Positions 8,318-52,388 are shown, counted from the stretch's first letter. The stretch: 64,000 nucleotides of DNA from Candidatus Forterrea multitransposorum CG_2015-17_Forterrea_25_41 (GCA_009392915.1 CP045477.1:224001-288000); one strand, 5' to 3'. Numbers and translations are program-made. The notes: generated by a model from the letters alone, not told the origin.

Positions 8318-8481
8318 TTTTTCCCCTTAAAAATCATTTCCTTTAAAAAACCCCTTTAATATAGAAAAACTGTAAAAAACCCCTTTTTTACATTTTTTCA
8401 AAATTTATACCTTTTTTCCTTCTTTTAAAAATAAGTTTTTGTCTTTTATTTTAGTCATTTAATTTCCCTCTAAAAAACTTT

Positions 8482-8700: not shown

Positions 8701-8857
8701 AAAAAACTAAAAAAACTATTTTTTTTAATTTTACAACTCTTTTTAAATATTTTGTATATATAGATTTAATACTAATGAAATTGCTTTTTAACCTATTAAG
8801 CAATCAATTTAGCTACATTATAATTTTATATTAAAAAGAAGGAGTTGACTTAAAAAT

Positions 8858-9193: not shown

Positions 9194-9194
9194 T

Positions 9195-9214
9195 TCTTTT
9201 TTTTTCTTTTTTTT
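9195..9214 (+). terminator. Oligo-T tract
   Basis: tctttttttttcttttttttt. Confidence 0.4.
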
Positions 9215-9362
9215 AAATAAAAATACATTTTTTATCTATAAATAATGAATATTTAAATATTTCTATTTATAGTATATTTAAAGTATATATAAAAAACTTT
9301 ATATAGTAATAAATATATAATATTTATATAATATTTATAAATTTATAAATAAAGAAATAAAT

Positions 9363-12300
9363 ATGGTTAAAGATAAAAATAATTTAGGCTCAAATGAAAA
9401 CAATGAAAATAAACAAAATATTTTTTCAAGATTTTATAATTATCTTGAAGATAAATATTCTTCTTTATCAAACTGGCTTACAGAAAAAGGAATACCATTA
9501 AATAATTTAAATAATTATTTAGAGGAAAAAGGACTTCCTGCTTTTGCAATAGTTGCATCTATTTTATTATTATTAATCTTTATAATTGTTTTCTTAATTA
9601 TCTTTTCTTTTTCCAGTCAATCAACATTAATTTTTTCTGTTAAAGATTATTCTGGACTTTCAATCAATGATGCTTTTTTAAAAATTACAAATAGTTCAGG
9701 TAAGGAAATCTTTTCAGGAACTGTAAATGATACTGATGTTAAAAAATTAAAATTAAAATTAGGAGAATTATATTCTTTTAAATCAACTAAAGATGGATAT
9801 CCTGATTTTTCAAAATCAATAACTATTACTGATAAAGATCAAAAAGTACAAATTACTTTTTCAGAATCAATTGAGTATGGTATATTAAGAATAAAATTAA
9901 TAGATAGAGATAATAAAGGAATAATTACTTCAGGAACTGCGATCGCAAGATATTCAATTAATAATGCTCCTGAGTCTACAGAAAACATTGTAAATATTGC
10001 AAATGAACATTTTATTACTTTAGAAGTTCCAATGAATAAAGATATTGAACTTTTAGTTAGTGCAGATGGTTATGAAGATTTTAAAGAAACAAATTTTAGA
10101 ATAACTTTAGAAAATCAAGAAAAAGTAATTGAAATGGATATTTCTTCTTTATCTTTTGAAGGTAAAAGTCAAGTTACTTTTGTTGTTTTAGATACAGAAC
10201 AAAATCCAATTGATGGTGCTTTAGTAAGCATATATAATCTTGGAGATGAATTATTAGATTCAAAAAATACAATTGATGGAAGAGCTTTATCTTTTATTGA
10301 TAGTGGTTCTACAATATCTTATAAAGTTGAAAAAGAAGGTTATAGAACATTTGTAAGTGATCCTGAAGTTTCTTTTAGAATTACAAAATCTGAAATAACT
10401 TATAATGTTACTTTAGAAGAGGGTGGAAATTTTTTAGATGTGTTTGTAAAATCTGGTTCTAATTTTTTAGCTCTTGGAGATGTTGCAATTACTGTTTATG
10501 ATTTAAATAATAATATTATTAATTCTGGAAATACAGATGATTTAGGAAATTTAAAATTAACTGGTCTTTCTGATAAAGCACCAATTGTTGTAACTGCTTG
10601 TAAAGAAGATTTCCTTTGTGAAAATTTAACAGTAGATCTTTTAGAAAAAAGTTCAGTTGAGTTTACTTTAGAAAGAATAGATGTAACAAATAGTGCTATT
10701 CTGTCTGTTTTTGTTGTTGATGAAAAAAATTTACCGATCTCAAAAGCTTTTATAAAAATCTATCAATTACTTGAAGATGATAAAGAAGTTCCATACAACA
10801 CATCTCTTCAAACTGATCTTACAGGTTCTCTTTCAATACCTCTAAGAGTTGGAGATTCTTTTATAGTTTATTCATTAGTTGGAGAAGTTCAATATTTTGA
10901 AGAAATTACAATTGATGCTTTAAGAGAAAATAAAATAATTTTTGTAATGGATAATGCTTCTAAAATAATTAAATTAGATCTTTATGATGAAAATGGTTTT
11001 AAACTTACTTCAGGTTCTTTACTTGTAAAAACAAAAGATGGAACTGTTCTTTTTGATGGTAATTTATCTGAAACTGATCAAATAAGTTTTATTTCAGAAG
11101 GCTATAAAGATTTATATGCTGAATACACAGATGTTAATGGTAATAAATCTTCAATTAATTTTAATGCTGATGAATCTGAGTCAGATGGATATATAAGACT
11201 TGATTTTAATAAAGAAGTTAATTTAACAGATTATCCTGTAATTGAGTTTTCAGGAATTGTAGATTCTAAAGGAGTTAAATCAAATTTTGTAACAATAGGT
11301 AAAGAATATTATTTAATTTTTGATGTTTTATTCCCAGAAAATACTTATAAAGGACAAGTACATATTAGAGCTGGTGATGATACTCAAGTTGATGTTGAAG
11401 AAATGAGTTATGGTATAACTGGTTTTTCTGCAATGGATATTTATGATTTTAAATATGGTACAACATATAATAGTTCTCCTCTTCCAGGTTTAATGAATAT
11501 TGATCTTTTAAATGAAGGTTCTTCTCAAGTTTTAAATAAATGGCTTGAACTTAAATGGAATAGTGATCTTCCTTTAGGTAATAAACAAATCAAAGTAAAA
11601 ATAAATGTTATAGATGATTCTTATTCAAAATTAACTTTTAAATATAGAACTTTATTTGAAGAAAATAAATTATACTATAGAGATCCAGTTGACTCTTTAT
11701 TAAACCAAAGTTATTCTTCATCTCAAAAAGGTGCTTTATATGCAGATACAAAAGAAGTAAATATTGATGTTTATAATGTTCCTTTAGATTGTGAAGGTTC
11801 TCAATGTTTGTCATATACTTTTATTGATTCAAAAGGAAATGAATTTTCAAAAAATGATTTCTATGCTGTAAGAGATGAAACTTATTTTTTAAAAGTTAGT
11901 CTTTATTCTTTAGATAATAAACAATTAGATCTTTTAGCAGAAACTTCAAAAAGTTTCCCTTTAATTTCATTTGGTTCTTTTTCAGATAATCTTTATCAAA
12001 ATGAAATAATAAATGATAATTCTTTATTTGAAATTTCAAGAGATGGTTTTTTACTTTCTGAAAATTCTTTAAAAAATATTTATCTTTCATTTATCTCAAA
12101 AGATATTGGTGCTGCATATATTGATCTTAAAGCAACAGATGTTATTTTAGGAAATGAAATTTTAAACAATAGATTAAGTTTTAATGTTTATGATAAAAAA
12201 GAAATGAATGTTTTAGTTTCTCCAAGTAATTATGTTGATTATGGATCAAATTTTACTGTTGATGTTTTAGATTCAGTTTCTCTTGAACCTATTACAGATG

Positions 12301-15300
12301 CTTTTATTTCTTTTTATGATGTTAGAGATACTTTTATTTCTTCTTTAAAACCAAGTAATTCAAATGGAAGGAATGGAAAATATACTATTACAAATAATTT
12401 TAATACTTCAACTGTTAAAATGGTAGTTGAAAGATATGGTTATCTTCCTTATGAAACTGAAATTTATATTATTGATAATACTTTATTAAATGCAATTCCT
12501 TCAGAAATAATTTTTAATTTAGGTCTTGACCAAACAGCATCAACTTCAAATTTTAGTTTAGAAAACTTAGGTAATTATCAAGCAACAAATGTAAGGTTTG
12601 GAGAACCTATTTGGATTGAAGGTAGTGCTGGTATTTATCTTGAAGGAAGAGGTAATCCAATAATTAATAAAAACTCAACTCAAAATTATCAATTGTTACT
12701 TACAACAGAAAATGATGTTGAACTTAAAACAGCATATGCACATCTTCCAGTATATGCATCTGTAGGTCCTAGAGAAGTTACAAAAATATTAAATGTTAGA
12801 ATAAATAAAGGTTTAATGTTAAATGAATGTGTTGAAATTACTCCTTCTGAAGTTTCTTCTTTTGTTGGACTAAATGTTTCTTCAAATTATGCAGATCCTT
12901 TTAATACTCCTTTTGCAGATTATGATTATACTTCAAATACTTCAAATAATCCTATGCTTGCACCTTCTCAAAGTTATTCTAATTATGAAGAATATTTAAA
13001 TTCAAGTGGATATAACATTACTGATTCAACAGATAATGGTTATACTTACACAGATTCTAAAAATTATACTTATCATGCAACTTCTCCTGCTCTTAATTCT
13101 CAAATTACTGAAAACACAACTTATTTTACAATTAAAAATAATTGTTCTCAAGCTATAACTTTTAATCCTCAAGCAGTTTTAACTTCTTCATCATCAAATA
13201 ATAATTTAGAAGTTTCTCTTGCAAACATAACTGTTCTTCCAGGAGAAGAAAAAGTTTATGATGTTATTTTAAAAAATTCATCTGAACTTAAAAGAAAAAC
13301 AACATATACCTATAATGTTTTATGGCATAATAATTATTATTCAATAGCTCCTTCAGTTTTAAATGTTGATCTTTTAGATTTAAGTAGAGCTTTATGGGTT
13401 ATGCCACAACAAATAAATATTCCAATCTCTCAAGTACATCCTCAACAAGCTGCTGAAAATTATACTAGATTTTTTATTAAAAATATAGGTGCTGTTCCAA
13501 TAACTGATATACAAATAAGTCAGTATCCAAAAATGGTGTCTTCTAATATTAAAATAACTGAATATCCAAGACAAGTATCTGTTTTAGAACCAGGAAAAAC
13601 AATTCCTGTTGATTTAAAATTTTCAGTAAATATTAATAAATCTACATTAGATAATGCCTTTATACAAGTAACTGGTAAAGCTGTTGGTATTAGTGAACCA
13701 ATTACTTCAACAACACAATTAGTGTTTTCAATTTCTTCTCCAAATTGCTTAAAAGTAAGTAATAAAAATATTAATTTTGATTTAGAAGTTGGGGAAACAA
13801 GAGCAAGAAATATTACAATTACAAATCAATGTTCTGAACCTGTTACAATAGTTGGAATTGATAAAAAACAACAAGGATATTATCAAGCATATGGGGATAA
13901 TTCTTTTAGAATAACTCCTGCTTCTGGTAATCCAATAATTCCTGTTAACATGTCAAATTCTTATAGAATAGAGTTTACTGCAAATTCTTTAGGTGGTTCT
14001 CCAAAAACACCAATGATACTTCAAGGTAGATTAATGAATTCAGGTAATCCTGTAACTTCAGAAGAGGTTTTAGTTTCAATAACTATAGATGATATAATGG
14101 TTGGAGAAGAAGCTGAAAGAAATATTTCTATTTTATCTTCTCTTCCTTCTTGTGAAGATCCACAAAATATTAATTCATATAATAGACCATTAATTTCAAT
14201 TAAAGATTGTTCTGAAACTTCAGGATATTGTGATGGAGAATCTTCAGCTGAATTAATTTTAAAAAAAGTAAATGAACTTCAAAATGAAATTAAACAATTT
14301 TCTGCACAAACACAATCAAAAGTAATTGATACTGGTTGTACTCTTCAAGATGCATATAGTGGTTTTTGTAAAATATCTGAACTTGGTGGAGGAATTGATC
14401 CTGTTGAGTTTTCTTTCTTTATGCAAAATGATAATGTTACACCTGATTTAATTAAATCTATTTTAACAAAATCAAATTATTCTTTTAAAAATTATTTTGT
14501 TGAAACAAATATTTTTAATAAAGAAATTAAAACTATAAATCAATATTCTTCTTATGGGGTATATGCTGGTGGAAATAAAATATTTGTATCTCCTCACCTA
14601 TCAGGTTGTGGAAAATATACAGTAGAGATTGATGGTTATGTTGCTGCAAGTCCAGATTATATTTATCCTGAAAGAGCATATTATTATATTAATGTTGTAG
14701 AAAAAGATACTAACACTATTCATTGTGAGAAAAATATTGTAAATTATTTAAATTATCTTCCATGGGATCTTTCTTTTAATAAAAACCAAAGAGCAGGAAC
14801 TTGGCTTACTTTATTTACTGGTGATGAAAATTTATCAAAAGCTTTAATTAAAAGTGTGGGTAAGTTTAAGTCAGATGAAATTGATTTAAGATATGTTTAT
14901 AATAAAGATGTTTTATCTACAAGAAATAGTACTTTAAATGTTTCAACTGGAGAGATTTCTGAAAATAAAGAAGCTCTTGCAAAAATTTCTTTTAATGATA
15001 CTTCTTTAAGAAAAAGCTCTTCTCCAGAACAAATAGATATTACTTTAAATTCTCTTTATAATTCTCCTGAAGGTAAAACTTCTGAGTATGCTGTTAAAGA
15101 TTTTTCAAAAGTAATTTCTTCAATGATTTCAGATAATGATTATTCTGCAAAAGTTTGTATTTCTGAAGATAAAACATATATGCTTGTTTTAGATGTTATT
15201 TCAGCAGGAGATTTAACTTTTGTTGATAAAGAAGTAAGTCTTCCTTTAAAGGATGGAGCTTCATGTTCTTTATTAAAAGTTAAATCATCAGTTCCTGAAA

Positions 15301-17378
15301 CTTTAAAGATTACTTCTGATTCTTTAGAGTTTGCAAATATTGGTTTTAAGAAAAATAAAGATGATACTCTTCAAGAGTCATTAGATATTAGTGTTATTGC
15401 AAATAAAGATTCTAACTTTTATATGTGTGTAACTCCAAATTCAGAGACTGCTATCTCAAGTCTTGTTGATAAAAAAATAACTGTAACAGCAACAAGTATT
15501 TATTCTGCAAGTGGTAGTATTGGAAATAGAAGCACAACTTCAGAAGTAGCTTTCTCTTCATGTGCAATCACACCTGAAGATTATCTTTTAGGTATTTATT
15601 CAAATATTTTAACTGAAAATAATAAAGCTGAAGATGATAGAATCTTACCTCAAAATTATACAGCTATTGTAGATTGGGATAAACAATATAATCCTGAAGA
15701 AAAAGAAAAATTATGTTCAACTTTACAAAAGATTGTAAATAGTAAAAAGTATAATGGAGAACTTTTCTTTGATTATGAAGTTTTAGGTTGTGAGATTGAA
15801 GATTCTTCACAAGAAAGAGATTCAAGAATAAGTAAAGGATTACATAATGCTGGACAATATTTCTTTTCTTGTTCAGGAGCTTGTGGACTTTGTTATGGTC
15901 TTTCAGGACTTATAATGCCTACACAATTTGTAGGTGCAATTGTTGATTGTTTAGGTTTCTCTTGTTTATTACCTTCATTAAATATATTTGCATCAAATCT
16001 ATCTAATGGAGAAGGTGGAATATCTTGGCTTTTAGATGAATTTTTTGGATTATTATTAAATGATGATGTTAGTTTCTTTTCAAATATTACAAGTGAGATT
16101 GAAACATGGGTAAGTGGTGTTTTAGGTGTTGGAGGAGCTGCAACAAGTGGAGCTTTAAAAGCTAATGCTGCTTCTGCTGCTGTACCTTTAGATCAAGTTA
16201 CTCAAGACTTAGTTTCACAATCTAGTTATGATCCTACAACACAACAAATATTAGATGATTTAGCAAATCCATCAACAACACCTGCTCCTGTAAATCCATC
16301 AACAACTTCTGGTGTAATTAATGGTTCTACTGAATTAAAAAATTTAAATAGTCAATTAAATAATTTAAATAGATATTTAAGTGGTAATGACAATATTAAA
16401 TTACAAACATTTTCAAACCCACAAGAAGCAGGTAGATTTAGTGATATCCTTAGAAAAATGAATCAAACATCTGGATCTAACTTTGATAAATTGAGATCTT
16501 TATCTACTCAAGAGTTTGATGATTTTGTAAATATTCTTGAAAAACAAAATTTTACAGGTAAAAATAGTCATTTATTCAAAAAAGACTTACTTATTAAAAG
16601 ATTAAAAGATGCTAAAGTAAATGATTTCAAATCAGTTTCAGCTGCAACTTCTTCAAGTGCAGCAGCTACATCTAGTAGTGCAGCTTCAGTTGCTGATGAT
16701 TTCTATGATTACCCTAAAGCAGATTATGATCAAGCAATTAAAAATTTTGATAATGATATTAAAATGCTTGATGATTCAATAAGTAATCTTGAAAATCAAA
16801 AAGCAGCAATTGAAACTAATGCAAAAAGATCATCTGCAAATCCTAAAAAAGCACTTCGTTATAAATCAAAAGTTGATGCTCAAATAAAAGCAATAGATAG
16901 TCAACTTGATGAACTTAAAAAAAGTAAAGATGCTCTTTCAAGTGTTAAATCTAAATTTGCTTCAGCTAAAAATGTAAATGGTACTTATAAAGTTCCAACT
17001 TCTGCAATTGATGATTTATCAAATAATATTCCAAAACAAGCAAAACTTAGCAAATTATCTAAATTTGCAAAAATTAAAGGTGTTGCAAAAAGCTTTGGAA
17101 GAGGCCTTCTTTGTGGTGCTACAGGAAATGCTGCAGGAATATATTCTTTAAAAGAAGAAGGTAAAACAGGACTTAATAAATCAATAGAGTTTTTAAGTAA
17201 AAATGATTTTGAGAAAAATATATTCTATGTTTCAGAAGTTGATATGTTATCTCCAGAAAATGATCAAGAATACGAAACAAGATATACAATTAATATAAAA
17301 CCTTATATCTCTCAAGATCAAAGTATTATTTCTTCAATTCCTACAAAAAGAATTGATTCTTGTACTATAGAAGAATAA
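9363..17378 (+). CDS. Giant (2671 aa) signal-anchored surface protein: conserved cytoplasmic N-motif, one TM helix, at least 8 CarboxypepD_reg/Ig-like beta-sandwich repeats, Cys-containing modules, and a C-terminal hydrophobic/Ala-Ser-Thr-Pro-rich/coiled-coil tail
   Basis: The N-terminus is ...FYNYLEDKYSSLSNWLTEKGIPLNNLNNYLEEKGLPAFAIVASILLLLIFIIVFLIIF. Repeated about 80-aa modules follow (e.g. VTFVVLDTEQNPIDGALVSIYNLGDELLDSKNTIDGRALSFIDSGSTISYKVEKEGYRTF). There are dozens of NxS/T sequons. The tail carries the PSTTPAPVNPSTTSG linker, SAATSSSAAATSSSAAS and heptad-like segments. Confidence 0.8.
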   Translation: MVKDKNNLGSNENNENKQNIFSRFYNYLEDKYSSLSNWLTEKGIPLNNLNNYLEEKGLPAFAIVASILLLLIFIIVFLIIFSFSSQSTLIFSVKDYSGLSINDAFLKITNSSGKEIFSGTVNDTDVKKLKLKLGELYSFKSTKDGYPDFSKSITITDKDQKVQITFSESIEYGILRIKLIDRDNKGIITSGTAIARYSINNAPESTENIVNIANEHFITLEVPMNKDIELLVSADGYEDFKETNFRITLENQEKVIEMDISSLSFEGKSQVTFVVLDTEQNPIDGALVSIYNLGDELLDSKNTIDGRALSFIDSGSTISYKVEKEGYRTFVSDPEVSFRITKSEITYNVTLEEGGNFLDVFVKSGSNFLALGDVAITVYDLNNNIINSGNTDDLGNLKLTGLSDKAPIVVTACKEDFLCENLTVDLLEKSSVEFTLERIDVTNSAILSVFVVDEKNLPISKAFIKIYQLLEDDKEVPYNTSLQTDLTGSLSIPLRVGDSFIVYSLVGEVQYFEEITIDALRENKIIFVMDNASKIIKLDLYDENGFKLTSGSLLVKTKDGTVLFDGNLSETDQISFISEGYKDLYAEYTDVNGNKSSINFNADESESDGYIRLDFNKEVNLTDYPVIEFSGIVDSKGVKSNFVTIGKEYYLIFDVLFPENTYKGQVHIRAGDDTQVDVEEMSYGITGFSAMDIYDFKYGTTYNSSPLPGLMNIDLLNEGSSQVLNKWLELKWNSDLPLGNKQIKVKINVIDDSYSKLTFKYRTLFEENKLYYRDPVDSLLNQSYSSSQKGALYADTKEVNIDVYNVPLDCEGSQCLSYTFIDSKGNEFSKNDFYAVRDETYFLKVSLYSLDNKQLDLLAETSKSFPLISFGSFSDNLYQNEIINDNSLFEISRDGFLLSENSLKNIYLSFISKDIGAAYIDLKATDVILGNEILNNRLSFNVYDKKEMNVLVSPSNYVDYGSNFTVDVLDSVSLEPITDAFISFYDVRDTFISSLKPSNSNGRNGKYTITNNFNTSTVKMVVERYGYLPYETEIYIIDNTLLNAIPSEIIFNLGLDQTASTSNFSLENLGNYQATNVRFGEPIWIEGSAGIYLEGRGNPIINKNSTQNYQLLLTTENDVELKTAYAHLPVYASVGPREVTKILNVRINKGLMLNECVEITPSEVSSFVGLNVSSNYADPFNTPFADYDYTSNTSNNPMLAPSQSYSNYEEYLNSSGYNITDSTDNGYTYTDSKNYTYHATSPALNSQITENTTYFTIKNNCSQAITFNPQAVLTSSSSNNNLEVSLANITVLPGEEKVYDVILKNSSELKRKTTYTYNVLWHNNYYSIAPSVLNVDLLDLSRALWVMPQQINIPISQVHPQQAAENYTRFFIKNIGAVPITDIQISQYPKMVSSNIKITEYPRQVSVLEPGKTIPVDLKFSVNINKSTLDNAFIQVTGKAVGISEPITSTTQLVFSISSPNCLKVSNKNINFDLEVGETRARNITITNQCSEPVTIVGIDKKQQGYYQAYGDNSFRITPASGNPIIPVNMSNSYRIEFTANSLGGSPKTPMILQGRLMNSGNPVTSEEVLVSITIDDIMVGEEAERNISILSSLPSCEDPQNINSYNRPLISIKDCSETSGYCDGESSAELILKKVNELQNEIKQFSAQTQSKVIDTGCTLQDAYSGFCKISELGGGIDPVEFSFFMQNDNVTPDLIKSILTKSNYSFKNYFVETNIFNKEIKTINQYSSYGVYAGGNKIFVSPHLSGCGKYTVEIDGYVAASPDYIYPERAYYYINVVEKDTNTIHCEKNIVNYLNYLPWDLSFNKNQRAGTWLTLFTGDENLSKALIKSVGKFKSDEIDLRYVYNKDVLSTRNSTLNVSTGEISENKEALAKISFNDTSLRKSSSPEQIDITLNSLYNSPEGKTSEYAVKDFSKVISSMISDNDYSAKVCISEDKTYMLVLDVISAGDLTFVDKEVSLPLKDGASCSLLKVKSSVPETLKITSDSLEFANIGFKKNKDDTLQESLDISVIANKDSNFYMCVTPNSETAISSLVDKKITVTATSIYSASGSIGNRSTTSEVAFSSCAITPEDYLLGIYSNILTENNKAEDDRILPQNYTAIVDWDKQYNPEEKEKLCSTLQKIVNSKKYNGELFFDYEVLGCEIEDSSQERDSRISKGLHNAGQYFFSCSGACGLCYGLSGLIMPTQFVGAIVDCLGFSCLLPSLNIFASNLSNGEGGISWLLDEFFGLLLNDDVSFFSNITSEIETWVSGVLGVGGAATSGALKANAASAAVPLDQVTQDLVSQSSYDPTTQQILDDLANPSTTPAPVNPSTTSGVINGSTELKNLNSQLNNLNRYLSGNDNIKLQTFSNPQEAGRFSDILRKMNQTSGSNFDKLRSLSTQEFDDFVNILEKQNFTGKNSHLFKKDLLIKRLKDAKVNDFKSVSAATSSSAAATSSSAASVADDFYDYPKADYDQAIKNFDNDIKMLDDSISNLENQKAAIETNAKRSSANPKKALRYKSKVDAQIKAIDSQLDELKKSKDALSSVKSKFASAKNVNGTYKVPTSAIDDLSNNIPKQAKLSKLSKFAKIKGVAKSFGRGLLCGATGNAAGIYSLKEEGKTGLNKSIEFLSKNDFEKNIFYVSEVDMLSPENDQEYETRYTINIKPYISQDQSIISSIPTKRIDSCTIEE

Positions 17379-17401
17379 TTCTTTTCTTTTTTTATTTTTT
17401 T
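17379..17401 (+). terminator. Oligo-T tract
   Basis: ttcttttctttttttatttttttag. Confidence 0.35.
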
Positions 17402-17487
17402 AGTAAAAAGAAATATATAAAAATATAAACATCTTATTTATATTAGTTAATATAATATATTAAAGATATAATTGGTGTTATCTAATC

Positions 17488-19167: not shown

Positions 19168-19297
19168 ATTCACTTTTTAATGTTAATAAAAAGGTATTTA
19201 AATGTATAAGCACTATAATTATATAACAAATAACATAGTTTTTAAAAGATTATGTTATAAAAATATAATATATTATAATATATACGAGAGATGATTT

Positions 19298-26269: not shown

Positions 26270-26296
26270 TTTTTATAAACTAAGAGGTTATGAAAT

Positions 26297-31900: not shown

Positions 31901-31937
31901 TTAATTTTTATATTAAAAATAAAAGGTGTAAAAAAAT

Positions 31938-34832: not shown

Positions 34833-34847
34833 AAGAGGGATTAATTA

Positions 34848-42248: not shown

Positions 42249-42321
42249 AAGTAATATATATAAATATATTGCTTAACTATATTTTATAGGTTTAATATAT
42301 ATATATTAGGTTAGTATAATT

Positions 42322-42684
42322 ATGAGAAGATACATTTATTTATTTTTAATCGTTTTCTTAGTTTTTCCATTTATTTCTGCACTTAGTTATGATAATGAAA
42401 TCTATGTAAACCCTTTTGTTTTTGGTGTAATTAGAGGGGATGATGGGGAAGTTATTTCAAATATTTCTGATGATGAAATAATAGATCCTGAAATGCAAGT
42501 TTCAAGTGCAAATGGGTTTACTAAAAAATCAGATCTTGATTTAACCATAAGAGAGAATCTTTTGATTTTTAAACTTCCTTCTTATCAAAAAACAAATAAT
42601 AATTCTTTAAATAAATATACTTTTATTTATAATACCTTTGATTATCCTTCAAAGAATGTAAATATTTTATTTAAATTAAATTGA
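42322..42684 (+). CDS. Small secreted protein (signal peptide)
   Basis: MRRYIYLFLIVFLVFPFISALS is a signal peptide. The stop overlaps the next gene's start (ATGA). Confidence 0.4.
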   Translation: MRRYIYLFLIVFLVFPFISALSYDNEIYVNPFVFGVIRGDDGEVISNISDDEIIDPEMQVSSANGFTKKSDLDLTIRENLLIFKLPSYQKTNNNSLNKYTFIYNTFDYPSKNVNILFKLN

Positions 42685-45110: not shown

Positions 45111-45133
45111 TTTAAAAAAAGAGAAGAAAGAAT

Positions 45134-48100
45134 ATGTCAATATTTAAAAAATCAAGAGACAAAATAGAAGCAGAAAAGCTATATGCTCTTTTATCAGACA
45201 AAACTACAAACTATACTCTAGAGGATATTAAAGAGACTATTAAAAAACAAGGTTATTCTGATAAAGTTTCTTCAATTGTTGTAAAGATGATTACAGATAA
45301 TAAACTTCCTTTAAAAGATTCAGTTAATAAAACAAAAACAAAAGAAGAAGTCTTAAAAGAATTATCAGCTTCTGTTGATAAAAACTTCTCTAAACAAAAT
45401 CCAAAAGATTCTTCAAAAGATTCAAAAAAAGAAGATAAAAATAATCAAAAAGAAAATACAAAAAAACAAGAAGATATTAAAAAAGAAGATTCTAAAAAAC
45501 AAAAAGAAGATCTTAAAAAAACAAAAGAAACAAATTTAAAAAATATTAATAAAGTTCCTTTCTTTACAAAAGTAAAAACTTTCTTTAAAAGAATATATTT
45601 CTTTTTTGAAGATAATTACTATAAGATGGTTGATGGTGTAAGTAAAGTTATACCTCTAAACAAATTAACAGACAAAATAGATAAAGTTTTCCCAAGTTTC
45701 ATATTATTCTTATTAATCTTAGCTTTATTGATATATTTAATACTTTCAGGAAGTTTATCTTTCTCTAAAACTTGGACAGTTGCTGTAGAGGTTTATGACC
45801 CATCTTCTGTACCCTTAAAAGATGTTTCTGTAACTTTAATGCTTAAAGATGAAAATTTTTCAACTTTAAAAACAGATATTTTTGGTGAAGTTATTTTTAG
45901 TGATTTTAAATCTAGAAAACAAAATATTAATTTAATAGCTTCTAAAGATAATTATGATACAGTTGAACATTCCTTTAAATTAAGTAAAAGTAATTTAAGA
46001 CAAAAGTTATATCTTCCAACAGATGTAAATTCTAAGATTGATCCTTCAGAAGAAGAAGTAAGAGAAATTTCTTTTGTTGAAAATAATACTGTTTTAATAA
46101 CAGATTCTGTATTAACTACAAATTTTTCTTGTACTAATGCAGATGTAGAACCTAATCCTACAAGAAAAGTTATTTCTTCAGGAAAGGTAACAGTTACAAC
46201 TTATTCTGGTTGTGGTGCTTTAAGAGTTTCTGTAACTTCAGATGATTTTTCTTCAATTACAAATCAAGTTATAAATTCTTCAAATAAAGTAAATCTTACA
46301 AGAATTAATCTTGATAGAGGTAATTTAGGTTTCTCTGTTAAAAACATATCTGGAAGTTCAATTCCTGGAACAGAAGTTAAAGTTTATAGTTCTTCAAACA
46401 CTACTTTTCCTCATGATACAACCACAACTGATCTTTATGGTTTAGGTGAGTTTAGTTTAGAACCTAAAAGTTATTTTTTAACTTTCTCAAAAGAAGGTTA
46501 TCTAACAAATCCTTTAAAAGGTCCTTTAACTGTTATTAAAAATGATTCTGTAAACACAGATGTAGTTTTATTTACTTTAGATGATCTTTTAGAATTTGAT
46601 TGTTCTGATGATAAATATTCACAATTTTGTATTGCTGATGAAATTGATTGTTTTAATCCAAACTTAAAACCATTTTTAATAAATAATGCTGATGGTTCTT
46701 GTACAATTGGAAGACCAGGTTATATTTCTGTAACTTTAAAAGATGTTAATTCTGGAGAACCTGTATATGCAGATATAACTTTAGATTCAAAATTAAAAGA
46801 ATCTGATCAAAACTTTTCTCTTGGTGAACATATTGCAAGGGATACTAATTTCTATACTTTTAATGTTATTGATTTCTATAATTATAGAGTAAGAGTTTTA
46901 AATACAGAAGAGAGTGGTTATCTTCAACCAGATCCAGTCACTGTAAACGGTATTGATCAAAATATAACAGTTAATTTAGAATATTCTTCTTCCCTTAACT
47001 CAGGAGATATTTCAGTAAATGTTAAGAGTGCAGATATGCCTATCTCAAATGCAAGAGTTTATTTATATAAAGAGTTTGAAGATGATTTTGTTTTAGTAAA
47101 TTCTGATCCATTATTTACAAATCAAAATGGAGATGTTAATTTTTATTCTCAAAGAGCAAATAGAGATTATTATGCTTATGCTTTACATAATGTTTTAGAT
47201 AAACAAGGAACTTCACAAACAGATGATTTAGATGTTAACTCAATACTTGATTTATCAATAGATCTTGAAGATATTCCAAAGATATTAAATCTAAAGGTAA
47301 GTCCAAGTATTTCTTATGATATTAATTTTTATAATTCTTCAGATAATCTTGTAACTGAATATGTAAGAACAGATCTTGAAGATGGAAATTCTCTTTATTA
47401 TTTTACAGGTTCTATAAATAAAGTTTATGCAGTTGTTTCTTCTTCAGGTTATACTACCTATCAAACAGATTATATTACTTTAATACCTGATCAAGAAGTT
47501 TATAAAACAGTTAATCTTTCTACACTTTCTTCTTGTGAAGACTCTAAGTTAGAAATTTTAGGTCTTTATGATGGTTCTGGAGTTTTAGAAATTGATAATA
47601 TTGATTTTGTTGAAAATGATTTAGATAAAGAATACAGATTAAAGTTTAAATATATTTCATGTACAGAAGATGAAGAATACAATCAAGCTACTTTAAGACT
47701 TGGAAGACAAGGTTTAATAGATGATGAATATTTATTCTTTGTTTCAGATCAATTTACTTCTCAAGATATAGATGTTACAAGAGGTTATAAATTTTCACAA
47801 GAACATATACCTGACTTTAATTTTGATCTTTTCAATCTTAATTATTCTCAAGATAGATCTTATGATTATTCTGGTGAAGGTTATAAATGGATTGAAATTG
47901 ATTTTGAAAAATTAAATTCTGATATCTTAGAGTTTTCAACTAACTTTAAGTTCAGAGAAGATTCAATTGTTCCTTTTGAAAACTATGTTTTAAATTATAA
48001 ATCATTTGCAAGTATTTATGATGAACTTTATTCTTTTGATCCTGTTTTAAATGAATCTTGGACAGAGATACCAATCTATCCTAATGGTTATTTTTATGCA

Positions 48101-51100
48101 GAAACAAACAAATATTTAATACCTTTTGAAAATACAGATTATATTTATTCTGTAAAATTAAAAGACTGGAATCAAAATCTTTTAGAAGAATATGCTGGTG
48201 GTTATCCTGTATCTATTAATAATTTTTATAAATATGATCTAAGTTATTTATATTTAAATCAAACAGAAAGAAACGGTAGTGTTTTACAATCTTCTCAATA
48301 TACAAATAATAATTTAGATTATTTAAGTTATGGTTATACTTCATCTTTAGGTAACTCAAGTTCAGGAGATACTCAAAATGCTACAAATAACATGACTTCA
48401 TTTTTAATACTTCCAGATTATAATACTCTTCCAGGTTCAACAGATACTACTATAAATCAAGAAATCTATTATCATATTAATGTTGATGATTATAATTATT
48501 CTTTAGATGATATTAATGCAGAGATTGGTTATTATTTAAATACTTATACTCTTTTAGAGCCAAAAGGTTTTTTTGAAAATACTAATTTTTCAGATTCAAG
48601 TATTATTTCTGATGTTTTAGATGAGTACCCTTTAGTTAATACAAGTATTTATTCTTATTTATCTGATGAAAATTTTATATTTAATATTTCAACTAACTTT
48701 TCAGGAAACAGAATAATTATTGGTGAAAATAATTTAGGTTTTAAAGTTTTAGATAATTATGGTTCTCCAGTTTCAAATGTTTTAATAAAGTATAAAGTTG
48801 ATGGTGATGAGCTTATAACTTTAGGGTCTACAAATGAACAAGGTATGCTTAGTGATCAAAATATTTTTATAAATCTTTCAGATATTGGAAAAAATATTAA
48901 TTTTGTATTTTTGTTTTCTCCAGAGTTTGGTTTCCTTGCAAACACAGTTGTAAGAAACAAAGAAATCTATTCTGGATTTTCAATAGTTCCAGAAGATATT
49001 AATTTATCTGCAAGTTATTATATTTTAAATGATCAAGTTATAATTGATCAAGTTTCTACAAATAATTATAATCTTTTAAAAGAAACAAATTATTCAAGCA
49101 CTTTAGAAGAAATTGATTTTGTTGGAGAATCAAGTTTGTTTAATCTTGATTCTATTAAAAATAAAATGATTGAAGATAATAATCTTGTAAAAGATTTATT
49201 AGAAGGAGAAAATGAAATTATTACAAGTCTTTTCTTAAACAATAATATTTCTCAATCAACAAATCTTTTAGGTTATTATAGAAATGAAATTGATATTAAT
49301 AATTCTTTAACACAATTATTAGATATTAATTCAAATGTTGAAATTATTAATCTAGGTTCAATTAACTATGATTTTAATCTTGAAAAACATTTTATGAAAG
49401 GACTATTAATTGAAAACAATAATGTTTCTCTTGAGCTTATAAAAGAAATAAACGAATTAATTACTTTAGATTTAAATCTTTTATCAGATAACTCTCAAGC
49501 AACATTTGATAGTATTTCTGTAGAGCTTCCTGAATTTTTAGATCTTGAAGAATTTAATGAAGGTTATTCTTCTTTAGTTGGAGAGTCTTTAACTTCTGAT
49601 GGTTTAATAATTCCTCTTAACTTTAAGATTAATAACTCCTATTCAGGTTCTCTTCCAACTCCAAAGGAAGATATTAATTTAACTTTTAATGTTTATCTTG
49701 ATGATAAATTAGTTTCTTTTAATAAAATAATTTCAATAAAAGTATATTCTAAAGATGACATCTTTTTAATAGAGTCTGAAGGAGACTTACAGATCTATTG
49801 TACTGTTGAAAATTGTTCTCAAAAAAAATCTTTTACTTTTAAAAAATTAGTTAATAATTATATATTAAATCTAAATAAAGAAATTGAAATCAATGAGATG
49901 GATTTAATTGAAGTTTCAAATCTTTTAAGTAATATTAATTTTATTGACCTTTCTGAAAAGAACAGAGCTTTATCTTTTAGTGCCCTATATAATTCTGTTA
50001 ACGAAGAAAATAAACAAGGTAATTTTGATTTAATTTTTAATATTAATATTTTAAATGATTCTTTTAATATAGAAATACCTATTGATTATTTAATTATAAA
50101 ATATTTAGAAGAAGAAACCATAAGTGAAATTACTTTTAATTCCTGTATTGGTGTTGGTGGTCAAGAAAGCAGTAGTGATTTATTTATTTTAGGTTATTGT
50201 CAAGATACCCAAGATACTTGTAAAACAGGAGAATCTGCTGTTCCAAAAGTATTTTTTAATTGGGCAGAATCTGACCTTTCAACAGATTATGACGGAAAAA
50301 CCTGGAATAATGTCTGTATTGGTAATAGCCAAGATACAATGTCAAGTAAATATGCTTGTGATTCCTTACAAATGTTAATTTCAATTTTTAATAAAATTGA
50401 TAATGGTGTAGAAGAATCATTCTATATTAAACTTTTAAATGATGGAATTTCTGATGCTCTTTTAAAAGATTTTATAAATTATAATACACTTTACTTAGGT
50501 TATGATAAACCTAGTGAAGAGATCTTTTCAGAAGATGCAGTTGATGATGGTTTATTTAAAATAACAATTAATAATTCTCCAGAAATTAAAATTTTCCAAC
50601 CTGGTATCTATAAAGTTTTAGTATATGGTGATGATTCAGGAAATGCATATATGGGAAGAGAAGAAGATCAAATGATAGATATACGTCTAGAAAAGGTAAG
50701 TGATCTTCCTGCATCAGAGATAAGTGTATTCCACTATATGCCATTTAATGGTAATTTAGGTTTAGATGGTACAAGAGAGGGTTACGGTATTAAAAATCAA
50801 GATAGTGATGTTGCTCAATTAACTCAAGATGTTGATATTAATTATATTGATGTTATAGATGAAATAATTCAACTATCTTTAACTAATAATAATCTAGAAA
50901 CTTCTCACTTAACACAAACATTAAAGTCTGAAGGAAAAATACTTGAATTAAATAAATATGATAGTGTTGTTGAAATGATTTATTCTCCTTCATATCCAGT
51001 ACCAATATATTCTCATGTAGCATGTATTGATAAAGATGATTTTAGTTATAATCTTTATGAAAATAATAATGCTTTAGATAATATTATAGGTGGATCATTT

Positions 51101-51577
51101 ATTGATTGGAATTTTAATAATACCATAAGATCAGATGTTAAAACAACAGTAACAGGAGATGTTACTAGATACGTATTTAACAATAATAATTTAGAAGGTT
51201 CTTTAAACCTTAATTCAATGTTATATCTTCCTGTAAAATTAAATATTGATTCTTTAAAACTTAAAACCACAGAGTTTGCAAATAATAAAAATACAACTTT
51301 ATTTACAAAGAATAATTTTACAGGTGTAAATCAAGCAGATTTAGTTTTCTCTGAAGATGATTATGTTCTTGGAAATGATTTAATAAACCTTAATACTATT
51401 AAAGGTTTATTTAATTTTATAAGTCAAGAAAAAGCATGTATTGAAAAATCTATTGATAACACAACTATTAAATGGATTGATGAAAAAGTTAATTTTACAG
51501 AACAAGAATTACTTGATATAAATAGTAATATTCCTTCTGATTATTCTTGTCTTGAAGGAGAGGTAATCATAGATTAA
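45134..51577 (+). CDS. Giant (2147 aa) signal-anchored surface protein, paralog, with an extended K/E/D-rich cytoplasmic N-terminal region and C-terminal module B
   Basis: A charged, low-complexity leader of about 150 aa (KKEDKNNQKENTKKQEDIKKEDSKKQKEDLKK) precedes the conserved IYFFFEDNYYKMVDGVSKVIPLNKLTDKIDKVFPSFILFLLILALLIYLIL TM anchor. Beta-sandwich repeats follow. The C-terminal region (CKTGESAVPKVFFNW, HYMPFNGNLGLDGTREGYGI, GLFNFISQEKACI) is homologous to 31938..34832. Confidence 0.8.
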   Translation: MSIFKKSRDKIEAEKLYALLSDKTTNYTLEDIKETIKKQGYSDKVSSIVVKMITDNKLPLKDSVNKTKTKEEVLKELSASVDKNFSKQNPKDSSKDSKKEDKNNQKENTKKQEDIKKEDSKKQKEDLKKTKETNLKNINKVPFFTKVKTFFKRIYFFFEDNYYKMVDGVSKVIPLNKLTDKIDKVFPSFILFLLILALLIYLILSGSLSFSKTWTVAVEVYDPSSVPLKDVSVTLMLKDENFSTLKTDIFGEVIFSDFKSRKQNINLIASKDNYDTVEHSFKLSKSNLRQKLYLPTDVNSKIDPSEEEVREISFVENNTVLITDSVLTTNFSCTNADVEPNPTRKVISSGKVTVTTYSGCGALRVSVTSDDFSSITNQVINSSNKVNLTRINLDRGNLGFSVKNISGSSIPGTEVKVYSSSNTTFPHDTTTTDLYGLGEFSLEPKSYFLTFSKEGYLTNPLKGPLTVIKNDSVNTDVVLFTLDDLLEFDCSDDKYSQFCIADEIDCFNPNLKPFLINNADGSCTIGRPGYISVTLKDVNSGEPVYADITLDSKLKESDQNFSLGEHIARDTNFYTFNVIDFYNYRVRVLNTEESGYLQPDPVTVNGIDQNITVNLEYSSSLNSGDISVNVKSADMPISNARVYLYKEFEDDFVLVNSDPLFTNQNGDVNFYSQRANRDYYAYALHNVLDKQGTSQTDDLDVNSILDLSIDLEDIPKILNLKVSPSISYDINFYNSSDNLVTEYVRTDLEDGNSLYYFTGSINKVYAVVSSSGYTTYQTDYITLIPDQEVYKTVNLSTLSSCEDSKLEILGLYDGSGVLEIDNIDFVENDLDKEYRLKFKYISCTEDEEYNQATLRLGRQGLIDDEYLFFVSDQFTSQDIDVTRGYKFSQEHIPDFNFDLFNLNYSQDRSYDYSGEGYKWIEIDFEKLNSDILEFSTNFKFREDSIVPFENYVLNYKSFASIYDELYSFDPVLNESWTEIPIYPNGYFYAETNKYLIPFENTDYIYSVKLKDWNQNLLEEYAGGYPVSINNFYKYDLSYLYLNQTERNGSVLQSSQYTNNNLDYLSYGYTSSLGNSSSGDTQNATNNMTSFLILPDYNTLPGSTDTTINQEIYYHINVDDYNYSLDDINAEIGYYLNTYTLLEPKGFFENTNFSDSSIISDVLDEYPLVNTSIYSYLSDENFIFNISTNFSGNRIIIGENNLGFKVLDNYGSPVSNVLIKYKVDGDELITLGSTNEQGMLSDQNIFINLSDIGKNINFVFLFSPEFGFLANTVVRNKEIYSGFSIVPEDINLSASYYILNDQVIIDQVSTNNYNLLKETNYSSTLEEIDFVGESSLFNLDSIKNKMIEDNNLVKDLLEGENEIITSLFLNNNISQSTNLLGYYRNEIDINNSLTQLLDINSNVEIINLGSINYDFNLEKHFMKGLLIENNNVSLELIKEINELITLDLNLLSDNSQATFDSISVELPEFLDLEEFNEGYSSLVGESLTSDGLIIPLNFKINNSYSGSLPTPKEDINLTFNVYLDDKLVSFNKIISIKVYSKDDIFLIESEGDLQIYCTVENCSQKKSFTFKKLVNNYILNLNKEIEINEMDLIEVSNLLSNINFIDLSEKNRALSFSALYNSVNEENKQGNFDLIFNINILNDSFNIEIPIDYLIIKYLEEETISEITFNSCIGVGGQESSSDLFILGYCQDTQDTCKTGESAVPKVFFNWAESDLSTDYDGKTWNNVCIGNSQDTMSSKYACDSLQMLISIFNKIDNGVEESFYIKLLNDGISDALLKDFINYNTLYLGYDKPSEEIFSEDAVDDGLFKITINNSPEIKIFQPGIYKVLVYGDDSGNAYMGREEDQMIDIRLEKVSDLPASEISVFHYMPFNGNLGLDGTREGYGIKNQDSDVAQLTQDVDINYIDVIDEIIQLSLTNNNLETSHLTQTLKSEGKILELNKYDSVVEMIYSPSYPVPIYSHVACIDKDDFSYNLYENNNALDNIIGGSFIDWNFNNTIRSDVKTTVTGDVTRYVFNNNNLEGSLNLNSMLYLPVKLNIDSLKLKTTEFANNKNTTLFTKNNFTGVNQADLVFSEDDYVLGNDLINLNTIKGLFNFISQEKACIEKSIDNTTIKWIDEKVNFTEQELLDINSNIPSDYSCLEGEVIID

Positions 51578-51579
51578 AT

Positions 51580-51951
51580 ATGAGTAATATTTTTTTAAAT
51601 TTTTTAAATGATTTTGATTTAATCTTACAGTTATTTTTAATTCTTACAATCATTGCATTTATCAGAAGAAGAGTAACTCACAATACATTAGCTCTTTTTT
51701 TAATAAGTGTAACAGTTATTGCTATGATCTTTTTATTCTGGCCTGTCTTTAAAATTGGATATATTTTCTATATTCTTTTGTCAGTTGGAGTTGCAGGAAT
51801 ATTTGTTGATTTCTTCTTTATTAGTGCTGGTGGTTCTGCAGAAGAGATGATGGGTAAAAAAATGGAGACTCATGGAACTCCTGGAGCAACTGAACATGCT
51901 GCAAGAAATCAATTAGTTAAAAAAATGGGTGGAAGACCTCCTGGAAGATGA
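51580..51951 (+). CDS. Small membrane protein (3 TM helices), possibly the N-terminal half of a split gene
   Basis: It starts 3 nt after the giant gene's stop. Hydrophobic helices are followed by the basic tail MGGRPPGR. Confidence 0.4.
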   Translation: MSNIFLNFLNDFDLILQLFLILTIIAFIRRRVTHNTLALFLISVTVIAMIFLFWPVFKIGYIFYILLSVGVAGIFVDFFFISAGGSAEEMMGKKMETHGTPGATEHAARNQLVKKMGGRPPGR

Positions 51952-52306
51952 ATTAAAAATGAATAGTAATAAAGGTTTTTTTGGTGGTATTCCTTTAATT
52001 GCAAAGATATTAGTAGTGTCTGTTATTGCAATTTTGATTGTTCCTGGGGCAATGGCAATTTTTCCTTGGGTTAAGTATGTTATAATGGGTTTAATTGTTT
52101 TTTTTATTTATGAAAACGCAGCACAGGCTTTTGGTGAAAAAAATATTCTTACCTTTATTGTGACTGGTATTTTAGCTTATTTTTTAGTTTATAAATATTT
52201 ATTTCTTACAAGTGCTATAATGATGGCATATTTATTTTTAGGCTTTGGTTTAGTTTCTGTTTTCTTTTGGGGAACTTCTACTCTTTCCAGAAAAGGCAAA
52301 AAATAA
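51929..52306 (+). CDS. Small membrane protein (3-4 TM helices)
   Basis: It overlaps the previous ORF by 23 nt in another frame and is hydrophobic throughout. Confidence 0.4.
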   Translation: MEDLLEDELKMNSNKGFFGGIPLIAKILVVSVIAILIVPGAMAIFPWVKYVIMGLIVFFIYENAAQAFGEKNILTFIVTGILAYFLVYKYLFLTSAIMMAYLFLGFGLVSVFFWGTSTLSRKGKK

Positions 52307-52314: not shown

Positions 52315-52388
52315 GGATCTATGGTGTAGCCTGGATAGCACGTAGGCTTGCGGAGCCTAAAACTTGGGTTCAAATCCCAATAGATCCG
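52315..52388 (+). tRNA. tRNA-Arg(GCG)
   Basis: GGATCTA-TG-GTGT-AGCCTGGATA-GCAC-G-TAGGC-TTGCGGA-GCCTA-AAAC-TTGGG-TTCAAAT-CCCAA-TAGATCC-G folds as a cloverleaf with all stems complementary. The anticodon is GCG. Confidence 0.7.

Follow-up and report, generated by a model that had tools for sequence, protein, structure and literature searches.

An array of 11 co-directional genes occupies positions 9363-52306 of the window, the 64-kb stretch of DNA analysed here (Table 1). Five of these genes encode giant proteins (G1 to G5), and the 42-kb array accounts for ~5% of the genome (5.0% of 0.84 Mb). Proteins encoded in the window have exact copies in the databases (NCP72242.1 and others), and the nearest genomes are Ca. 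Iainarchaeum/Diapherotrites MAGs (phylum Iainarchaeota). The source organism is a tiny groundwater archaeon.

TABLE 1. Features of the array and its flanks, with positions in the 64-kb window.
Feature	Position	Strand	Description
Tandem repeat	8482-8697		Unit 75-76 bp, 2.8 copies, 95%
G1	9363-17378	+	Giant, 2671 aa
P559	17488-19167	+	Type IV pilin-like, 559 aa
G2	19298-26269	+	Giant, 2323 aa
G3	26297-31900	+	Giant, 1867 aa
S964	31938-34832	+	Secreted, 964 aa, stand-alone C-module
G4	34848-42248	+	"Type B" giant, 2466 aa
s120	42322-42684	+	120 aa, N-terminal signal sequence
B809	42681-45110	+	Secreted Gly/Cys-rich, 805-809 aa; likely start ATG 42693
G5	45134-51577	+	Giant, 2147 aa
m123	51580-51951	+	Small polytopic membrane protein
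m125	51929-52306	+	Small polytopic membrane protein; likely start ATG 51959
tRNA-Arg(GCG)	52315-52388		Begins 8 nt past the last array gene

The original prediction for this locus counted nine genes; its ORFs and coordinates were re-derived as given, and a secreted 120-aa ORF (s120) had been overlooked. The close co-directional spacing also held, with gaps of 2-130 nt on re-measurement rather than 3-131 nt. The overlaps proposed for B809 and m125 probably vanish, given the JGI start call for B809 and the point at which family conservation begins in m125. The tandem-repeat region upstream and the tRNA-Arg downstream are both present, the repeat ending at 8697 instead of 8700, and searches of the array turned up no integrase, ATPase, or secretin, as had been noted.

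Architecture of the giants and their neighbours

The view of the five giants (1867-2671 aa) as paralogous, signal-anchored proteins with alternative C-terminal modules is well supported. BLASTP links G2, G3, and G4 to one another over ~1300 aa (1e-32 to 1e-34) and gave no direct match below 1e-3 between G1 and any of the remaining giants; with iterated profiles, all five are united across aa 1 to ~1050 (domain E values 1e-20 to 1e-50). Mutual homology, a point on which the original prediction hinged, is real. In the complete AR10 genome, the first giant is the best match of G3 (6e-99), and the second is matched by G1 (5e-27).

Each giant has a single strong N-terminal TM segment (mean Kyte-Doolittle 2.9-3.6, 19-aa window) with positive charges on its N-terminal side, as read from the sequences; before it lies a common cytoplasmic N-motif of ~40 aa, conserved across 75 different giants. 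The common stalk comprises ~1000-1450 aa of beta-sandwich, roughly 12-14 domains based on Pfam and profile matches, the Pfam matches being to CarboxypepD_reg, Big_1, SpaA, MG3, and MG4. CarboxypepD_reg repeats, originally ascribed to every giant, exceed the Pfam cut-off in G2 to G5, whereas G1 has only a weak bMG3 match. With its topology predicted, this long, anchored extracellular chain of Ig-like/beta-sandwich domains has the organization of a giant repeat adhesin.

Distal to the stalk the giants diverge. In G1 (TM helix aa 63-81), the beta-sandwich domains extend to ~aa 1050 and are followed by a long C-terminal region of its own, with a Cys/Gly-rich hydrophobic stretch (~aa 2100-2170) and helical low-complexity segments; an ortholog (L074; 3096 aa, 31% identity over 2250 aa) bears a C-terminal NlpC/P60 domain (2.7e-23). 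G2 carries the N-motif, TM segment, and common stalk to ~aa 1300, and has its own C-terminus after a partial C-module (the Cys-motif part only, aa 1753-2050). The common stalk of G3 runs to ~aa 1490 and leads to a helical low-complexity tail with a Cys-containing end. In G4, the N-motif, TM segment, and stalk are followed by a complete C-module (aa 1778-2459, nt 40179-42224), ahead of which lies an internal, Gly/Ala-rich hydrophobic hairpin (~aa 1515-1578, nt 39390-39581). G5 has a Lys/Glu-rich cytoplasmic extension of ~150 aa ahead of the N-motif (TM aa 185-203), the common stalk to ~aa 1040, a unique middle region, and the second half of the C-module (aa 1762-2127, nt 50417-51514).

S964, which had been described as a stand-alone copy of the C-module of G4 and G5, indeed matches the C-termini of both (BLASTP, 2e-36 and 1e-7, respectively); its C-module spans aa 255-964 (nt 32700-34829), behind a Sec-type signal (…SIPVSA/E) and a poorly modelled N-region. 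Together, G3 and S964 look like a split "type A" giant. The C-module, ~680 aa long in type B giants, defines an unannotated family of 737 representative proteins (~740) at E <= 1e-3, in which it is mostly located at the C-terminus of proteins of 2200-3250 aa; it gave no PDB or Pfam match except to generic beta-sandwiches, and one family member (P0033) combines PKD, dockerin, and a partial C-module. When an uncharged stretch was sought within 450 aa before the C-module, 43 of the 87 distinct C-module giants, or about half, proved to have one of 25-96 aa. The distance from the end of this hairpin to the C-module has a median of 136 aa (range ~100-210), and in 20/43 the hairpin is Cys-flanked on both sides.

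The high density of NxS/T sequons that had been remarked upon is real, at 1.5-2.0 per 100 aa vs 1.03 in flanking genes; however, it equals the shuffled-sequence expectation (z <= 1.5) because the proteins are Asn/Ser/Thr-rich, so that the heavy N-glycosylation read into it finds no enrichment beyond composition.

The N-terminus of P559 is of class III type (KKG/FNLFTALISLMLL), and the protein contains 10 Cys. It shows the features of a class III signal peptide (a positive N-terminus, Gly/Ala at -1, ~20 hydrophobic residues, and a helix start), and K-G-F-x-L-F-T-A-L plus the hydrophobic stretch is invariant across 21 homologs; AF2 predicts a long N-terminal helix (aa 10-77). B809, for which a beta-solenoid had originally been proposed, is 9.5% Gly with 22 Cys and some six Gly-rich repeats, each 45-60 aa long and read by eye in the sequence; self-BLAST, Pfam, NCBIfam, PHROG, and PDB searches all gave no match, and its homologs are confined to close relatives (5 loci). 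Homologs of s120 occupy the same position in close relatives, and the place of P559 between giants is likewise kept. The putative link between the giants and P559, B809, and s120 is drawn from this conserved gene order.

Conservation and comparison with known systems

As shown by synteny, the core conserved phylum-wide is a pair of tandem giants together with two small membrane proteins. Giants and m123/m125 homologs occur in this arrangement in the complete AR10 genome and in dozens of other loci: m123 homologs lie directly after giants in 33 related loci (AR10 among them), and m125 homologs are found in 19. One giant of the core pair has the extra internal hydrophobic hairpin (type B), whereas the other has the N-terminal anchor only (type A). 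Iainarchaeota genomes, that of AR10 included, contain C-module giants at 136 places, with the core gene order conserved, and the order of the array itself is conserved in relatives at 33-74% identity.

AR10 and Ca. Iainarchaeum are reportedly predicted by others to be free-living. The proposed cell-contact role is plausible, but the presence of the core in such genomes (AR10) makes a reading confined to episymbionts less compelling and leaves room for an envelope or S-layer role; a general role in the envelope would explain the core pair in predicted free-living genomes no less well than host attachment would.

The array had been taken to be undescribed; however, a locus of this type has already been reported with a cell-contact reading, a role in cell-cell interaction having been proposed for a giant-protein region of Forterrea multitransposorum (Probst & Banfield 2018, PMC5905446). 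The two agree in phylum, in how many giants they contain, in size threshold, in the length of the region, and in its share of the genome, and are almost certainly a single locus. The published treatment consists of one sentence and a cartoon; the domain anatomy, accessory genes, phylum-wide core, internal hairpin, and C-module family go beyond it.

The SPEARE proteins of Nanohaloarchaeota (3,300-8,500 aa, several per cent of the genome), for which host contact has been proposed (Hamm et al. 2019, PMC6642349), are likewise DPANN proteins, mostly extracytoplasmic with a single TM anchor (N-terminal in one variant, as in the array giants), and they carry adhesion domains. They share no sequence relationship with the array giants and contain serine protease, laminin-G, and cytoplasmic type III restriction-enzyme domains, none of which was found in the giants; SPEARE expression has been shown by proteomics (PMC6642349). 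Giant1-5 of Apilactobacillus kunkeei, five consecutive co-directional giants that make up ~5-6% of a small genome (PMC12863079), resemble the array in their elongated repeat stalks, a binding domain at one end, and growth by duplication and paralog addition. These proteins and the Ig-repeat adhesins SiiE, LapA, and Embp are, however, bacterial, non-homologous, and anchored via the cell wall or T1SS; the Giant1-5-type head is an N-terminal beta-solenoid, as opposed to the variable C-terminal head, N-terminal TM segment, and cytoplasmic motif of the array giants.

Among archaeal surface proteins, the stalk-and-canopy S-layers (SlaA/SlaB of Sulfolobales and Staphylothermus tetrabrachion) and the Haloferax surface-glycoprotein cluster HVO_2160-2173, which includes the largest protein of its genome (HVO_2160) (PMC8241124; PMC5898192), are similar in being large membrane-anchored beta-sandwich glycoproteins of the surface with small membrane-protein neighbours. 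They differ in having Sec signal peptides and C-terminal anchors (TM or ArtA/PGF-CTERM), and match the giants in neither sequence nor fold. The predicted arCOG01314 secretion/S-layer complex (Makarova et al. 2015) comprises DUF4350, a MoxR-type AAA+ ATPase, vWA, and DUF1616 (pfam07760) (PMC5898192); no Pfam matches to DUF4350, MoxR, vWA, or DUF1616 were found in the array or its flanks.

Proposed function and alternatives

The array would be the main extracellular apparatus of a genome-reduced member of the Iainarchaeota (Diapherotrites), and the reading that we favour, at even confidence, is a fibrillar surface coat or adhesin system mediating cell-cell or cell-substrate attachment, with a true S-layer as the main rival. 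The giants would be surface fibrils anchored in the membrane of the cell that makes them, their N-terminus facing the cytoplasm and the remainder exposed outside according to the predicted topology, and built as a cytoplasmic motif and TM segment, a stalk (predicted geometry), and an exchangeable distal module. The unit of two giants and two small proteins, which synteny shows, would be ancestral, and was expanded in this lineage to five giants, with one giant split (G3 and S964) and P559, B809, and s120 added as lineage-specific accessories. Anchoring of the giants, or help with their insertion, via the N-motif is the probable task of m123 and m125, and the beta-sandwich, putatively lectin-like C-modules and other tips may bind the surfaces of partner cells or substrates; as no specific relative of the C-module was found in structure or sequence, such ligand binding is a guess. 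An attachment coat would serve an organism unable to make lipids or nucleotides, in agreement with the published suggestion. The N-terminal anchor and the 16-28 Cys per giant are unusual, being atypical of known archaeal surface proteins, and count against this proposal.

A possible, though less probable, explanation is that the giants form an S-layer or S-layer-like canopy of Iainarchaeota, an A/B lattice of stalk-and-canopy type with a function like that of SlaA/SlaB or tetrabrachion, in which adhesion would be secondary and the additional paralogs would serve as variants of the envelope subunits. The core pair and m123/m125 are conserved phylum-wide, including in the complete AR10 genome, as is characteristic of a core envelope gene throughout a lineage; the genes are native and syntenic, and for a genome of 0.84 Mb the outlay is large. 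Extracellular beta-sandwich proteins that are rich in Asn, Ser, and Thr and carry many sequons would also suit a lattice, and the window shows no other S-layer candidate, yet no S-layer family was matched in Pfam or NCBIfam, the giants are not members of the known families (TIGR01564/TIGR01567, DUF1608, SlaA/SlaB, halobacterial csg), and solved S-layer structures are unmatched by sequence or fold. The anchor of the giants is N-terminal, whereas the archaeal S-layer proteins known so far are mostly anchored at the C-terminus by a TM segment or a lipid, and the many Cys and very long chains also speak against an S-layer. Five diverged paralogs with different tips (one of them enzymatic in a relative) look more adhesin- or effector-like than lattice subunits would.

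It is unlikely that the array represents a pilus or secretion apparatus in which a type IV-like filament would contain P559 as a minor or tip pilin, with the giants as cargo or filament-associated adhesins and with the assembly ATPase and platform encoded elsewhere in the genome. The class III-type N-terminus, long N-terminal helix, and putative pilin-like fold of P559, as well as its conserved place between giants, are consistent with this reading; no prepilin peptidase and no assembly ATPase or platform was found in the 64-kb window, and a "secretion-related ATPase" has been indicated in the Forterrea genome (PMC5905446, figure legend).

The locus is native rather than mobile. A horizontally acquired island or prophage remnant at tRNA-Arg, coding for tail-fibre-like or host-recognition proteins, can be dismissed almost entirely: the tRNA gene 8 nt after the last gene, the upstream tandem repeat, and one weak Sipho_tail match in G3 (Pfam, E 0.0035, below the cut-off) are set against uniform GC, GC3 (0.075 in the array vs 0.088 in the flanks) and codon use like those of the flanks, a tRNA-Arg neighbourhood that is not conserved, synteny that persists in relatives with as little as 33% identity and reaches LemA on the upstream side, the absence of PHROG matches and of relatives among 2.9 million viral contigs, BFVD TM-scores <= 0.10, and a search in which no integrase, capsid, or terminase was found. 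Viral hallmarks, composition, and synteny are all against this identity, which is refuted as far as the tools used allow; the cross-genome comparison that had been suggested as a check returned a conserved gene order that is not island-like.

Type B giants as a candidate membrane-insertion device

A further reading concerns the type B giants (G4), which could act in trans as a membrane-insertion device, the hairpin entering the membrane of a partner cell and not that of its own; we consider this very improbable. A stalk tens of nanometres long would present the hairpin beside the C-module at the far end, tip enzymes such as the NlpC/P60 domain of the G1 ortholog would first clear the wall of the partner, and the hairpin would then tether or locally fuse the membranes of both cells. 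Cytoplasmic bridges have been seen between DPANN archaea and their hosts. If this reading were true, membrane insertion would open host material to an archaeon that is auxotrophic for lipids and nucleotides, and type B giants would be the first molecular candidate for such bridges.

Gene content of the array and its surroundings

The array comprises eleven genes between 9363 and 52306, including those for five giant membrane-anchored surface proteins (G1 to G5). The original prediction of nine co-directional genes was right in direction and short in count, having overlooked the small secreted protein s120, and its gap sizes of 3-131 nt are 2-130 nt as measured. The two overlaps are present as called; both would probably disappear if B809 starts at the ATG at 42693, as in the JGI call, and m125 at the ATG at 51959, the point where conservation of its family begins.

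Genes of the array and the adjacent tRNA (window positions)
Feature	Description	Position	Strand	Length
G1	giant	9363-17378	+	2671 aa
P559	pilin-like protein	17488-19167	+	559 aa
G2	giant	19298-26269	+	2323 aa
G3	giant, the smallest	26297-31900	+	1867 aa
S964	secreted stand-alone copy of the C-terminal module	31938-34832	+	964 aa
G4	giant	34848-42248	+	2466 aa
s120	small secreted protein	42322-42684	+	120 aa
B809	Gly/Cys-rich protein	42681-45110	+	809 aa
G5	giant	45134-51577	+	2147 aa
m123	small membrane protein	51580-51951	+	123 aa
m125	small membrane protein	51929-52306	+	125 aa
tRNA-Arg(GCG)		52315-52388		

Every real-looking ORF of ≥100 aa in the window lies on the + strand. Cumulative GC skew climbs monotonically over 1-64000, in keeping with the replichore skew of bacterial type that has been reported for Ca. 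Forterrea. The array is flanked by ordinary archaeal housekeeping genes, encoding a PEP-utilising enzyme (C-terminal part), LemA, HtpX (peptidase M48), NurA, HisRS, AlaRS and ProRS. Between tRNA-Arg and tRNA-His (53200-53272), this archaeal genome encodes a bacterial-type HU/IHF DNA-binding protein (52508-52777; Pfam Bac_DNA_binding, E 3.6e-30), and a 41-bp tandem repeat (53277-53364, 2.1 copies, 85%) lies directly 3' of tRNA-His. The tandem repeat described upstream of the array was recovered (75-76 bp at 8482-8697, 2.8 copies, 95% identity); it is intergenic, between a winged-helix-like gene (7853-8317) and the gene for a 111-aa membrane protein (8858-9193), and has no match in Rfam. The 111-aa protein was rejected as an array member, having no link to the array or related loci. 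Two adjacent secreted proteins of 139 and 452 aa (5755-6174 and 6192-7550) are Ser/Thr-rich and contain Cys, with no family match and no relatives among related loci or in the array. A 375-aa protein (59180-60307) carries a TM at the N-terminus and a pair of HxK(x)4D motifs (…MHNKFCVFD… and …MHNKFCIID…) and is, by direct reading, a putative phospholipase D/cardiolipin synthase-like enzyme, notable in an organism reported to be without lipid synthesis.

Anatomy of the giants and their partners

BLASTP and iterated profile searches, the latter built with ORFs from 73 related loci, connect all five giants, bearing out the proposal that they are paralogs on one plan. By BLASTP, G2, G3 and G4 are joined over ~1300 residues (E 1e-32 to 1e-34), G3 and G5 are joined at their N-termini, and the C-termini of G4 and G5 match S964 (2e-36 and 1e-7, respectively). 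G1 has no direct BLASTP match to the other four; it matches the second giant of AR10, a complete Iainarchaeota genome, at 5e-27. The profiles link all five giants over aa 1 to ~1050, and G2, G3 and G4 further, to ~aa 1300-1450.

The giants are anchored at the N-terminus; their extracellular region is all-beta and their ends are exchangeable. Each has one strong hydrophobic helix close to the N-terminus, preceded by a cytoplasmic N-motif (consensus of 75 distinct giants: l.d.Y..lEdkyY..ldki...iP.yki.dpiDk..PSF); Lys and Arg are clustered ahead of the helix, so that the N-terminus is predicted to lie inside and the C-terminus outside. In G5, an extra cytoplasmic extension of ~150 aa, Lys/Glu-rich, precedes the N-motif (45134-45580), with low-complexity repeats in the underlying DNA (45414-45543). 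In the beta-sandwich stalk, CarboxypepD_reg is above the Pfam cut-off in G2-G5, with overlapping matches to Big_1, SpaA, SdrD_B, MG3 and MG4; the only Pfam match of G1 is a sub-threshold one to bMG3. The C-termini diverge: the ~680-aa C-terminal module (C-module) is complete in G4 (aa 1778-2459; reference copy, S964 aa 255-964), halved in G5 (aa 1762-2127) and reduced to its Cys-motif part in G2 (aa 1753-2050), and G1 and G3 finish in other sequences. In most of the secreted proteins of the array, a Cys stands 2-6 residues before the C-terminal end (G1, SCTIEE; G3, TCIEIN; S964, GCIIN; G4, LECS; P559, ACVAG); it is invariant across the P559 family and nearly so across the S964 family, and it may staple the terminus through a disulfide or link subunits to one another.

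Heavy N-glycosylation had been proposed from the high density of sequons. Array proteins have 1.5-2.0 sequons per 100 aa (flanking genes, 1.03; the three tRNA synthetases, 0.2-0.6), which is the expectation on shuffling each protein (z <= 1.5). The density reflects Asn/Ser/Thr-rich composition and thus gives no independent evidence for glycosylation.

The cluster also includes two conserved small membrane partners (m123 and m125), along with accessories particular to this lineage, of which one is pilin-like. The AF2 model of S964 (36 sequences; pLDDT 73, confident over aa 295-964) consists almost entirely of beta-structure, apart from a single long helix that follows a conserved C…C-D-x-T-Q-F motif; a profile search of PDB sequences gave no match. 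For P559, the model (21 sequences; pLDDT 74.7, pTM 0.74) has an N-terminal helix of 68 residues followed by an alpha/beta body; this long helix and the invariant K-G-F-x-L-F-T-A-L at the N-terminus of the family support a pilin-like protein. B809, put forward in the original prediction as a beta-solenoid, appears by eye to contain ~6 Gly-rich repeats of 45-60 aa (GG..[ILF]xF…N.G.LNI.L.); self-BLAST found no significant internal repeat, and neither Pfam nor PDB sequences gave a match.

Relatives and the two-giant core

With each species represented by a single genome, a scan located relatives of the C-module at 136 places, nearly all of them in MAGs of Iainarchaeota/Diapherotrites and in the complete genome of AR10. 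At these loci a pair of tandem giants recurs, with homologs of m123 (33 loci) and m125 (19 loci) behind it; the AR10 versions of these four genes encode proteins of 2444, 2249, 125 and 104 aa. The members of the pair are consistently distinct. The first giant (type A, ~2400-2900 aa) has the N-terminal helix only. In the second (type B, ~2250-2400 aa) this helix is supplemented by a hydrophobic stretch of 25-96 aa, uncharged and Gly/Ala-rich, which lies ~100-200 aa (median ~135) ahead of the C-module and is flanked by Cys on both sides in 20 of 43 cases (e.g., C-x-W-E-E-A … E-D-P-C). G4 is the type B member in the window, with this hairpin at ~aa 1515-1578. G3 and S964 both have the AR10 type A giant as best match, and therefore together resemble a type A giant that has been split.

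Among 1.84 billion representative proteins, an HMM search recovered 737 that contain the C-module (628 of them at E <= 1e-10); in most it closes a chain of 2200-3250 aa. None of the 737 has a Pfam annotation, and their source names are 'hypothetical'. In one protein from Diapherotrites, PKD and dockerin domains accompany part of the C-module. At one related locus (L076), the G1 ortholog is split immediately before the Cys/Gly-rich hydrophobic stretch of G1, a position suggesting that stretches of this kind can act in cis as a signal or an anchor. At the same locus, a gene for an AAA ATPase (AAA_14/DUF4143) precedes the P559 homolog (features at 5959-7890 and 8545-9912 of that locus).

At another locus (L074), the G1 ortholog (648-9938; 3096 aa, 31% identity over 2250 aa) terminates in an NlpC/P60 domain (aa 2979-3065; E 2.7e-23, 82 bits vs a cut-off of 23) that is absent from G1 of the window. 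NlpC/P60 enzymes typically cut cell-wall peptides. The C-terminal, membrane-distal end of a giant can thus carry an enzyme, which fits a protein acting on the surface of another cell.

Origin and putative function of the array

The array is a native, conserved and expanded gene cluster, and its origin from a genomic island or a prophage is effectively excluded. The original prediction had taken tRNA-Arg for an island insertion point; GC is flat (25% for the window, 0.22-0.29 throughout), GC3 is 0.075 in the array vs 0.088 in the flanks, and the tRNA-Arg neighborhood shows no conservation among relatives. Relatives with identities of 74% and 36% preserve the order giant-S964-giant-small-B809, and the order LemA…G1-P559-G2-G3 is preserved at 31-39% identity. 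For a viral origin, PHROGs gave no match, a BFVD fold search gave TM-scores <= 0.10, and a C-module scan of a viral contig collection found no relative.

Database entries for the window proteins read 'hypothetical protein GW835_… [archaeon]' (NCP72242.1 and NCP72245.1 among them), and the proteins were found on 35-41 contigs, the longest of 839,632 bp; the array (42 kb of 839.6 kb) makes up 5.0%. The closest genomes are Ca. Iainarchaeum/Diapherotrites MAGs, the best a 671-kb contig (S964, 74% identity). The array had been regarded as undescribed; however, the locus is almost certainly in print, with the same interpretation in one sentence, in the report of Probst and Banfield (2018; PMC5905446) on Ca. 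Forterrea multitransposorum, a Diapherotrite of Crystal Geyser whose complete genome they described, so that the finding is not a discovery. The window almost certainly derives from that genome or from one of its strains.

We hold with moderate confidence that the array encodes a surface coat or attachment system. The giants would form long surface fibrils or a coat, their ends would bind or act on partner surfaces, and m123 and m125 would anchor the giants or aid their insertion. That the giants constitute a true S-layer is rather unlikely: conservation across the phylum, including lineages predicted to be free-living, is in its favor, but the N-terminal anchor, numerous cysteines, diversified tips and lack of any S-layer family match (Pfam, NCBIfam) argue against it. 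Known S-layer and adhesin families were rejected for all array proteins, as Pfam, NCBIfam and PDB sequence searches returned generic beta-sandwich matches only. A pilus- or secretion-linked apparatus, to which P559 could belong, is improbable and weakly supported; no peptidase or assembly ATPase is encoded within the 64-kb window. The arCOG01314 'novel secretion system' and the Haloferax HVO_2160 cluster were also rejected, their defining components being absent. That the type B hairpin inserts into a partner membrane is very improbable, since the gene-fission pattern suggests that hydrophobic segments act in cis.

As a cluster of giant surface proteins, the coat or attachment system proposed here is similar in kind to the SPEARE proteins of Nanohaloarchaeota and to Giant1-5 of Apilactobacillus, but differs from both in its own anchoring, conserved cytoplasmic motif, hairpin, unannotated C-module family and small membrane partners. 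We know of no DPANN proteins identified as gripping other cells and taking their material outside a few cultivated pairs. If the giants were the Iainarchaeota S-layer, this would be an unusual envelope architecture of two giants, N-terminally anchored. The analysis extends a one-line remark on one genome to a phylum-wide protein family with defined parts, namely a cytoplasmic N-motif with TM anchor, a beta-sandwich stalk, an optional hairpin, a ~680-aa C-module and two small membrane partners; it also brings out an expansion in this lineage, joined by a pilin-like partner, and a putative wall-hydrolase tip in one relative. These parts give metaproteomics, antibodies, cryo-ET and binding tests with recombinant protein something concrete to aim at.
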